NCBI RefSeq assembly: GCF_016026235.1
Contig: NZ_CP065613.1
Reading direction: 5' to 3' (one strand)
DNA length: 64,000 nt
DNA from: Escherichia coli
GTDB lineage: Bacteria; Pseudomonadota; Gammaproteobacteria; Enterobacterales; Enterobacteriaceae
Of the stretch, positions 44,062-44,646 are shown piece after piece; the first letter of the stretch is position 1; each line of letters begins with the position of its first letter. The notes under the pieces were generated by a model. The model saw only the letters and a program-made list of their open reading frames with translations. It ran no database searches and was not told the origin of the DNA. The translations under genes were made by a program, and so were the position numbers.

Positions 44062-44274
44062 GAAAATACCTTAGTGGGTAAACGCTTACATTCTTTCAGT
44101 GTTACGGAAAACGCCCGTTGGTTCAAGGGGTGGCGTGTTTTCATCGTGGGAATGTGAGCCAAACGCAAATAAGTAAGACAAAAAAAGAGATTGCAAACCT
44201 TTGGTTACACTTTGCGAAACGCTGTTGCGATTGACCGCTGGTGGCGTTTGGCTTCAGGTTGCTAAAGTGGTGAT

Positions 44275-44357
44275 CCCAGAGGTATTGATAGGTGAAGTCA
44301 ACTTCGGGTTGAGCACATGAATTACACCAGCCTGCGCAGATGCGCAGGTTTTTTTTT
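44275..44357 (+). ncRNA. omrB: OmrA/OmrB-family small RNA, copy 1 (probably OmrB by length)
   Basis: Starts CCCAGAGGTATTGATAGGTGA (conserved Omr 5' end), ends in hairpin CCTGCGCAGATGCGCAGG plus T9; lies between galR and aas. Confidence 0.8.
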
Positions 44358-44471
44358 GCCGGTCATCAATCTGTAACAGTAACCGACAATTTACACACCT
44401 CGTTGCATTTCCCTTCATTCCTTTGCGTTTTCTCGCTGGCGAAGAGTCGTCGTGCAGACCACAATCAAGAT

Positions 44472-44559
44472 CCCAGAGGTATTGATTGGTGAGATTATTC
44501 GGTACGCTCTTCGTACCCTGTCTCTTGCACCAACCTGCGCGGATGCGCAGGTTTTTTTT
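44472..44559 (+). ncRNA. omrA: OmrA/OmrB-family small RNA, copy 2 (probably OmrA by length)
   Basis: Starts CCCAGAGGTATTGATTGGTGA, ends in hairpin CCTGCGCGGATGCGCAGG plus T8; shares 5' and 3' ends with copy 1 but differs in the middle. Confidence 0.8.
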
Positions 44560-44646
44560 CGCACCTAATTTACTGTCGCTCGCGTTCTTTATCTCGTGTA
44601 ATCTCCCTCCATTCGCTTTTACTGAATCAGAGCAAAGGGAGTTGGA

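Follow-up and report, generated by a model that had tools for sequence, protein, structure and literature searches.

The spacer between galR and aas occupies positions 44062-44646 of the window (the whole 64,000-nt stretch of Escherichia coli DNA that was analysed), comprises all 585 nt between the start codons of the two genes, and carries two repeated units, identified below as the small RNA genes omrB and omrA (Table 1). The gene order is galR(-) / omrB(+) / omrA(+) / aas(+), in agreement with the order OmrB/OmrA given by an earlier sequence-only reading; the interval quoted there, 44062-44646, is the spacer as a whole, and the RNA genes proper take up the two stretches listed in Table 1. 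A repeat search found a 24-nt direct repeat with 96% identity at 44272-44295 and 44469-44492, corresponding to the 5' ends of the units, and a 38-nt direct repeat with 89% identity at 44322-44359 and 44525-44562, corresponding to their 3' ends. Nothing could be aligned between the 5' and the 3' repeats, so that the centres of the two units differ, as had been described. The 64-kb window contains exactly two copies of the 5' motif CCCAGAGGTATTGAT, one at 44275 and the other at 44472, each on the plus strand (chance expectation 0.06; none of 100 shuffles contained two or more matches), and the 3' motif, CCTGCGCRGATGCGCAGGTTTTTT or CCTGCGCRGATGCGCAGG followed by T6, is likewise present exactly twice, at 44331 and 44534 (chance expectation 0.00). 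The proposed two units of about 85 nt with a common 5' end and terminator were thus recovered, with sizes of 82 and 88 nt.

Table 1. Genes, RNA segments and conserved promoter elements of the galR-aas region; positions refer to the window.
Feature	Position	Strand	Description
galR	43030-44061	-	divergent upstream neighbour; 343-aa ORF with LacI-family Pfam domains; galR in K-12 and in the strain 600468 annotation
omrB distal box ACCTTTGGTTACACTTTGC	44197-44215	+	about -78 to -60; OmpR/RstA-consensus site, box B2; conservation 70-100% in 39 species
omrB proximal box CTGTTGCGATTGA	44221-44233	+	about -54 to -42; conserved in the 39-species alignment
omrB extended -10 TGcTAAAGT	44260-44268	+	hexamer at -12 to -7 with -12T; TG, TA and final T conserved in 39 species
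omrB	44275-44356	+	82 nt; 5' seed, central hairpin, terminator hairpin 44329-44350 followed by a T-run
OmrB 5' seed CCCAGAGGUAUUGAUAGGUGA	44275-44295	+	20 of 21 positions common with OmrA; predicted target-pairing part
omrA upstream blocks	44371-44379, 44393-44408, 44415-44431, 44436-44439	+	four blocks in the 39-species alignment
omrA -10 hexamer CACAAT	44460-44465	+	C at -12 and C at -13; conserved; -12C is the sigma-S determinant
omrA	44472-44559	+	88 nt; 5' seed, central hairpin 44501-44517, terminator hairpin 44532-44553 followed by T8
OmrA 5' seed CCCAGAGGUAUUGAUUGGUGA	44472-44492	+	20 of 21 positions common with OmrB; predicted target-pairing part
aas	44647-46806	+	co-oriented downstream neighbour; 719-aa ORF with Acyltransferase and AMP-binding domains; annotated aas in K-12 and strain 600468
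lplT	46799-47992		3' of aas

The covariance-model search that the sequence-only reading had proposed was run on the whole window against Rfam 15 and gave three matches at the gathering threshold, two of which belong to the OmrA-B family (RF00079, gathering score 40 bits). Both matches lie on the plus strand only and span model positions 1-87 of 87, with 86.1 bits (E = 2e-15) for omrB and 96.6 bits (E = 6e-18) for omrA. Furthermore, the two units are exact matches, with 100% identity, to MG1655 omrB (b4445, 82 nt) and omrA (b4444, 88 nt), respectively, which the curated MG1655 record annotates between aas and galR; the assignment of OmrA versus OmrB was made by the central region and the length. 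The Rfam model and the exact K-12 identity together settle family membership and confirm the OmrA/OmrB identity that had been put forward. The GC-rich palindromic terminator superficially resembles a REP element, and a generic REP/BIME-like palindromic extragenic element, or plain chance, might be invoked for the repeats. We give no credence to this explanation, given E-values of this order, the confinement of each motif to two occurrences in the 64-kb window, both of them in the spacer (chance expectations of 0.06 or less), and the orthologous position of the locus across Enterobacterales. The spacer thus almost certainly holds a pair of neighbouring genes, transcribed independently of each other, that encode the paralogous Hfq-dependent sRNAs OmrB and OmrA, each gene having its own promoter and terminator. 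What the window itself establishes is the identity of the sequences, their architecture, the promoter motifs, the synteny and the predicted pairings; the pair is already known, and every defining feature of the family that can be tested on a sequence is present here.

In comparison with OmrA (RygA/SraE) and OmrB (RygB) of E. coli K-12 MG1655, the RNAs of the window and their promoters are identical, in the same order and between the same neighbours. A global alignment of 6.5 kb revealed one extra T as the sole difference from the MG1655 spacer, located in the run after the omrB terminator (44349-44357; T9 here versus T8 in K-12), and scattered SNPs in the genes flanking the spacer; the window thus comes from an E. 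coli other than MG1655. A search with the locus as a 701-nt query had matches in 5423 of 5426 complete genomes of E. coli, many of them at 100% identity, and the T9 allele is accordingly shared with numerous further strains of the species. E. coli strain 600468 is identical to the window at this locus, and its PGAP RefSeq annotation lists no RNA gene in the spacer. The remark of the sequence-only reading that an ORF track cannot show these elements hence extends to this annotation, which misses both. The value of the present analysis lies in annotation and it adds no new biology: ORF-based tracks are blind to omrB and omrA, exact coordinates, strand and promoter elements are now fixed for both RNA genes, and marking them stops a 585-nt "empty" spacer from seeming unexplained.

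In the predicted folds of the two RNAs (z-scores of -2.9 and -2.7), most of the 5' end is left unpaired, GGUG/CACC closes a central hairpin, and a GC-rich hairpin forms the terminator. The 5' seed motif CCCAGAGGUAUUGAU(N)GGUGA is carried exactly by both units, and the first 15 nt are unpaired in the minimum free energy (MFE) structure of OmrA and partly unpaired in that of OmrB. The terminators, both of which were recovered by a terminator scan, consist of an 8-9 bp GC-rich stem (6 GC pairs of 9) with a 4-nt loop, followed by U8-9. Folding energy is no guide to the strand, as the antisense sequences fold at least equally well (z = -4.6 for the omrA antisense). The plus strand was instead assigned from the T-runs, the strand of the covariance-model matches and the promoters; RNAs transcribed from the opposite strand were ruled out, the antisense having neither a T-run after the hairpin, nor a covariance-model match, nor a promoter.

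Conserved promoter blocks were mapped from an alignment of the spacer from 39 species. According to Mathis de Fromont et al. 2026 (PMC13425233), the omrB promoter has two conserved regions and the omrA promoter has four, the same numbers of upstream blocks as in this alignment. By sequence comparison, the promoters in the window are identical to those of K-12, with the motifs at the published positions, and the published promoter results therefore transfer directly. The mutations T-75C and A-68G lie in box B2, which matches the OmpR and RstA consensus (PMC13425233); the mutated positions correspond to T44200 and A44207 of the window. The proximal omrB box is, judging from its position, probably box B1, which is required and whose binding partner is not known (PMC13425233). 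Mutagenesis of -12C to T attributed the sigma-S dependence of omrA to -12C and the sigma-S independence of omrB to -12T (review PMC12692685). Brosse et al. 2016 (PMC5175337) additionally showed in vitro activation of both promoters by phosphorylated OmpR, using the region from -114 to +50. A generic sigma-70 scan found neither omr promoter, a result that is uninformative because both promoters are activator-dependent and have weak -35 elements.

Two further conserved blocks of the spacer lie close to the flanking genes, namely GTGTTACGGAAAACGC at 44098-44113, approximately 40-50 nt upstream of the galR start codon, and TCTCGTGTAATCTCC at 44589-44606, approximately 45 nt upstream of aas and containing the -10-like TGTAAT; these are presumably promoter or operator elements of galR and aas. 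Two other candidate elements were rejected. The inverted repeat I2 (44157-44166 / 44244-44253, 10 nt) is unconserved in the 39-species alignment and probably due to chance. The sequence TTGCAAACCTTTGGT at the omrB distal box (44192-44206) matches the Omr-pairing site TTGCGAACCTTTGGG in the K-12 ompR 5' UTR at 13 of 15 positions and, with a chance expectation of roughly 0.1, is probably a coincidence.

To collect homologues, one genome of each species was scanned for exact matches to the pattern CCCAGAGGTATTGATNGGTGA, which gave at least 120 loci, all named organisms among them being Enterobacterales. A relaxed search of the 120 loci listed assigned two copies to 58 loci and a single copy to the other 62, approximate figures since some loci are incomplete, and Rfam confirmed both copies in sampled distant genera. 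The 5' seed is near-invariant in the 140 unique homologues, an invariance that is partly ascertainment, as the loci (first copies) were found by that 15-mer motif. In 38 aligned upstream copies of the OmrB type, nt 1-15 and the GGUG/CACC stem are invariant and the terminator shows a C-G to U-A double change in 7 sequences; the 31 aligned downstream copies of the OmrA type have the same features and, in addition, double changes at three pairs of the central hairpin. In every one of the 140 unique homologues, the U-run is immediately preceded by a terminator hairpin of at least 7 bp, and we found four mutually compensated variants of its stem (CCUGCGC, CCUACGC, CCCACGC and CCUGCGU). Homologues from Citrobacter, Enterobacter, Serratia, Pantoea, Erwinia, Edwardsiella, Dickeya and others resemble the E. 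coli genes in the seed, the GGUG/CACC stem, the terminator and the aas-proximal position, and differ in the sequence of the central hairpin and in the copy number of one or two. Most of the 120 loci listed retain the synteny, and galR was found within 450 nt upstream in 66 of 82 loci.

The evolutionary record also bears on whether the repeats encode small proteins, since mechanical ORFs of 20-78 aa overlap the region, including those at 44340-44492 (plus strand, 50 aa), 44452-44568 (plus strand, 38 aa) and 44254-44418 (minus strand, 54 aa). However, none of the ORFs lies inside a repeated unit or matches its extent, the pattern of conservation traces the RNA and promoter blocks and the paired stems instead of a reading frame, the length differences in the central region are not multiples of 3, and no such protein is annotated in K-12 or by PGAP; we regard coding as scarcely conceivable. 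A second explanation, which we consider very improbable, takes the omrA unit, or both units, for a transcribed 5' leader of the co-oriented aas-lplT operon, with the terminator acting as a regulated attenuator. Its attraction is positional, as omrA points the same way as aas, with no more than 87 nt from its end to the start codon of that gene, an adjacency that is kept in 79 of 86 Enterobacterales loci (aas within 400 nt downstream). Nevertheless, both terminators are strong (GC-rich stems of 8-9 bp and a U8-9 run), no competing anti-terminator pairing exists, and the separate conserved block with the -10-like TGTAAT (44589-44606) stands between the omrA terminator and aas. Moreover, the RNAs have been annotated and characterised as discrete 82- and 88-nt species acting in trans. 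Some read-through from the omrA terminator into aas may occur in addition to the production of two discrete sRNAs.

The spacing of the two copies varies among lineages, from approximately 190-205 nt in Enterobacteriaceae and 242-307 nt in Serratia, Hafnia and Rouxiella to approximately 2.03-2.10 kb in Pantoea/Erwinia (L011, L024, L038, L056, L060, L069, L084 and L112). Both far-spaced copies were confirmed by Rfam in L011 and L060, and the gap in L011 encodes a 579-aa class B penicillin-binding protein (2936-4675 of that locus; Transpeptidase and PBP_dimer domains), that is, an FtsI/PBP3-like paralogue bracketed by two sRNA genes. In three other loci, L040 (Mangrovibacter yixingensis), L083 and L117, both copies have an OmrB-like centre, the downstream copy being almost a repeat of the upstream copy, which suggests gene conversion or a recent re-duplication, not an OmrA/OmrB pair.

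Hfq-bound transcripts of approximately 82 and 88 nt, induced through EnvZ-OmpR, have been shown for the identical K-12 sequences (PMC2588501, PMC5175337), and from this identity we infer that OmrB and OmrA are expressed in the strain of the window as well. Guillier and Gottesman 2008 (PMC2588501) demonstrated pairing of their conserved 5' end with the ompT, cirA and ompR mRNAs close to the start of translation. We used RNAduplex to predict the interaction of nt 1-25 of the window RNAs with the K-12 ompT, cirA and ompR regions, with shuffled seeds as a control. For ompT the duplex energies were -19.9 and -20.1 kcal/mol (mRNA positions -5 or -7 to +21), with shuffled seeds equal or better at a frequency of 0.003-0.01, and for ompR they were -19.4 and -19.1 kcal/mol (-37 or -38 to -10), with shuffled seeds equal or better at 0.007-0.01. 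The cirA duplexes (-16.2 and -16.1 kcal/mol, -36 to -9) are not distinguishable in energy from shuffled seeds, which were equal or better at 0.12-0.14, and the pairing prediction alone is therefore weak for cirA. All three predicted duplexes coincide with the published sites (cirA -35 to -10; ompT up to +20). Control by the two RNAs requires Hfq and RNase E, and mutation of the seed abolishes regulation of every target tested (PMC2588501). The repression of outer-membrane protein mRNAs that had been named as their role agrees with these experiments (PMC2588501) and is by now an incomplete description, as the further known targets include ompR-envZ, csgD, flhDC, flgM, dgcM and btuB (PMC12692685).

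Carried over from K-12, the mode of regulation in the strain of the window would be as follows. The response regulator OmpR of the EnvZ-OmpR system would directly activate transcription of both omrA and omrB, with omrA depending additionally on sigma-S through its -12C and omrB relying on sigma-70 and being activatable by multicopy RstA-RstB. The single-stranded conserved 5' end (approximately nt 1-21) would base-pair, close to the start of translation, with short complementary segments of the target mRNAs, which are expected to comprise ompT, cirA, fecA, fepA, ompR-envZ, csgD, flhDC, flgM, dgcM and btuB, and the pairing would block translation and lead to RNase E-dependent decay. Repression of ompR would close a negative feedback loop, and the terminator hairpin with its U-tail is the expected Hfq-binding module. 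Hfq binding, RNase E-dependent decay, OmpR feedback and the regulation itself are thus expected here on the strength of experiments with sequences identical to those of the window. RybB, MicA, MicF and MicC resemble the Omr RNAs in the pairing of a 5' seed near the initiation region of outer-membrane protein mRNAs, in the dependence on Hfq and RNase E and in the terminator serving as an Hfq module. RybB and MicA belong to the sigma-E regulon. The sequences of these four RNAs are, however, unrelated to those of the Omr RNAs, they belong to other regulons and they lie outside RF00079. The comparison of the Omr RNAs with RybB was drawn previously (PMC2588501).

Several further features of the locus could have a function, which we judge unlikely when they are taken together: that further regulators bind the omrB box at 44221-44233 and the four boxes of omrA (44371-44439), that omr and aas are coupled, and that the T9 allele has an effect. 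The last omr gene lies approximately 90-180 nt upstream of aas-lplT near-universally, and with a coupling of this kind, partial read-through of the terminator could put lysophospholipid repair under OmpR and sigma-S control. Likewise, the extra T in the omrB terminator could, if it matters, slightly change termination or Hfq binding.

Elsewhere in the window, the tRNA-Gly gene (anticodon CCC) at 34939-35009 is followed by an IS1 transposase ORF at 35551-36054 (NF033558, 143.7 bits), and homology to strain 600468 after the IS1 resumes only approximately 180 nt before the end of yqeF (region 34939-36070). The ETT2 type III secretion island together with yqeG through most of yqeF, present in strain 600468 and K-12, appears to be absent here. 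A query with the glyU-IS1 junction reached a coverage of at most 87% among the matches listed, and the exact junction was confirmed in none of them. Between tas and ygdR, the window carries a 1426-bp insertion relative to strain 600468 (49162-50587), flanked by 13-bp direct repeats CAGCCGGATGCTG (49149-49161 / 50588-50600), with terminal inverted repeats of approximately 18 bp and a single minus-strand ORF of 448 aa that matches the IS4 family transposase model NF033592 with 303.7 bits; the insertion is apparently an intact IS4 element bracketed by its target-site duplication.
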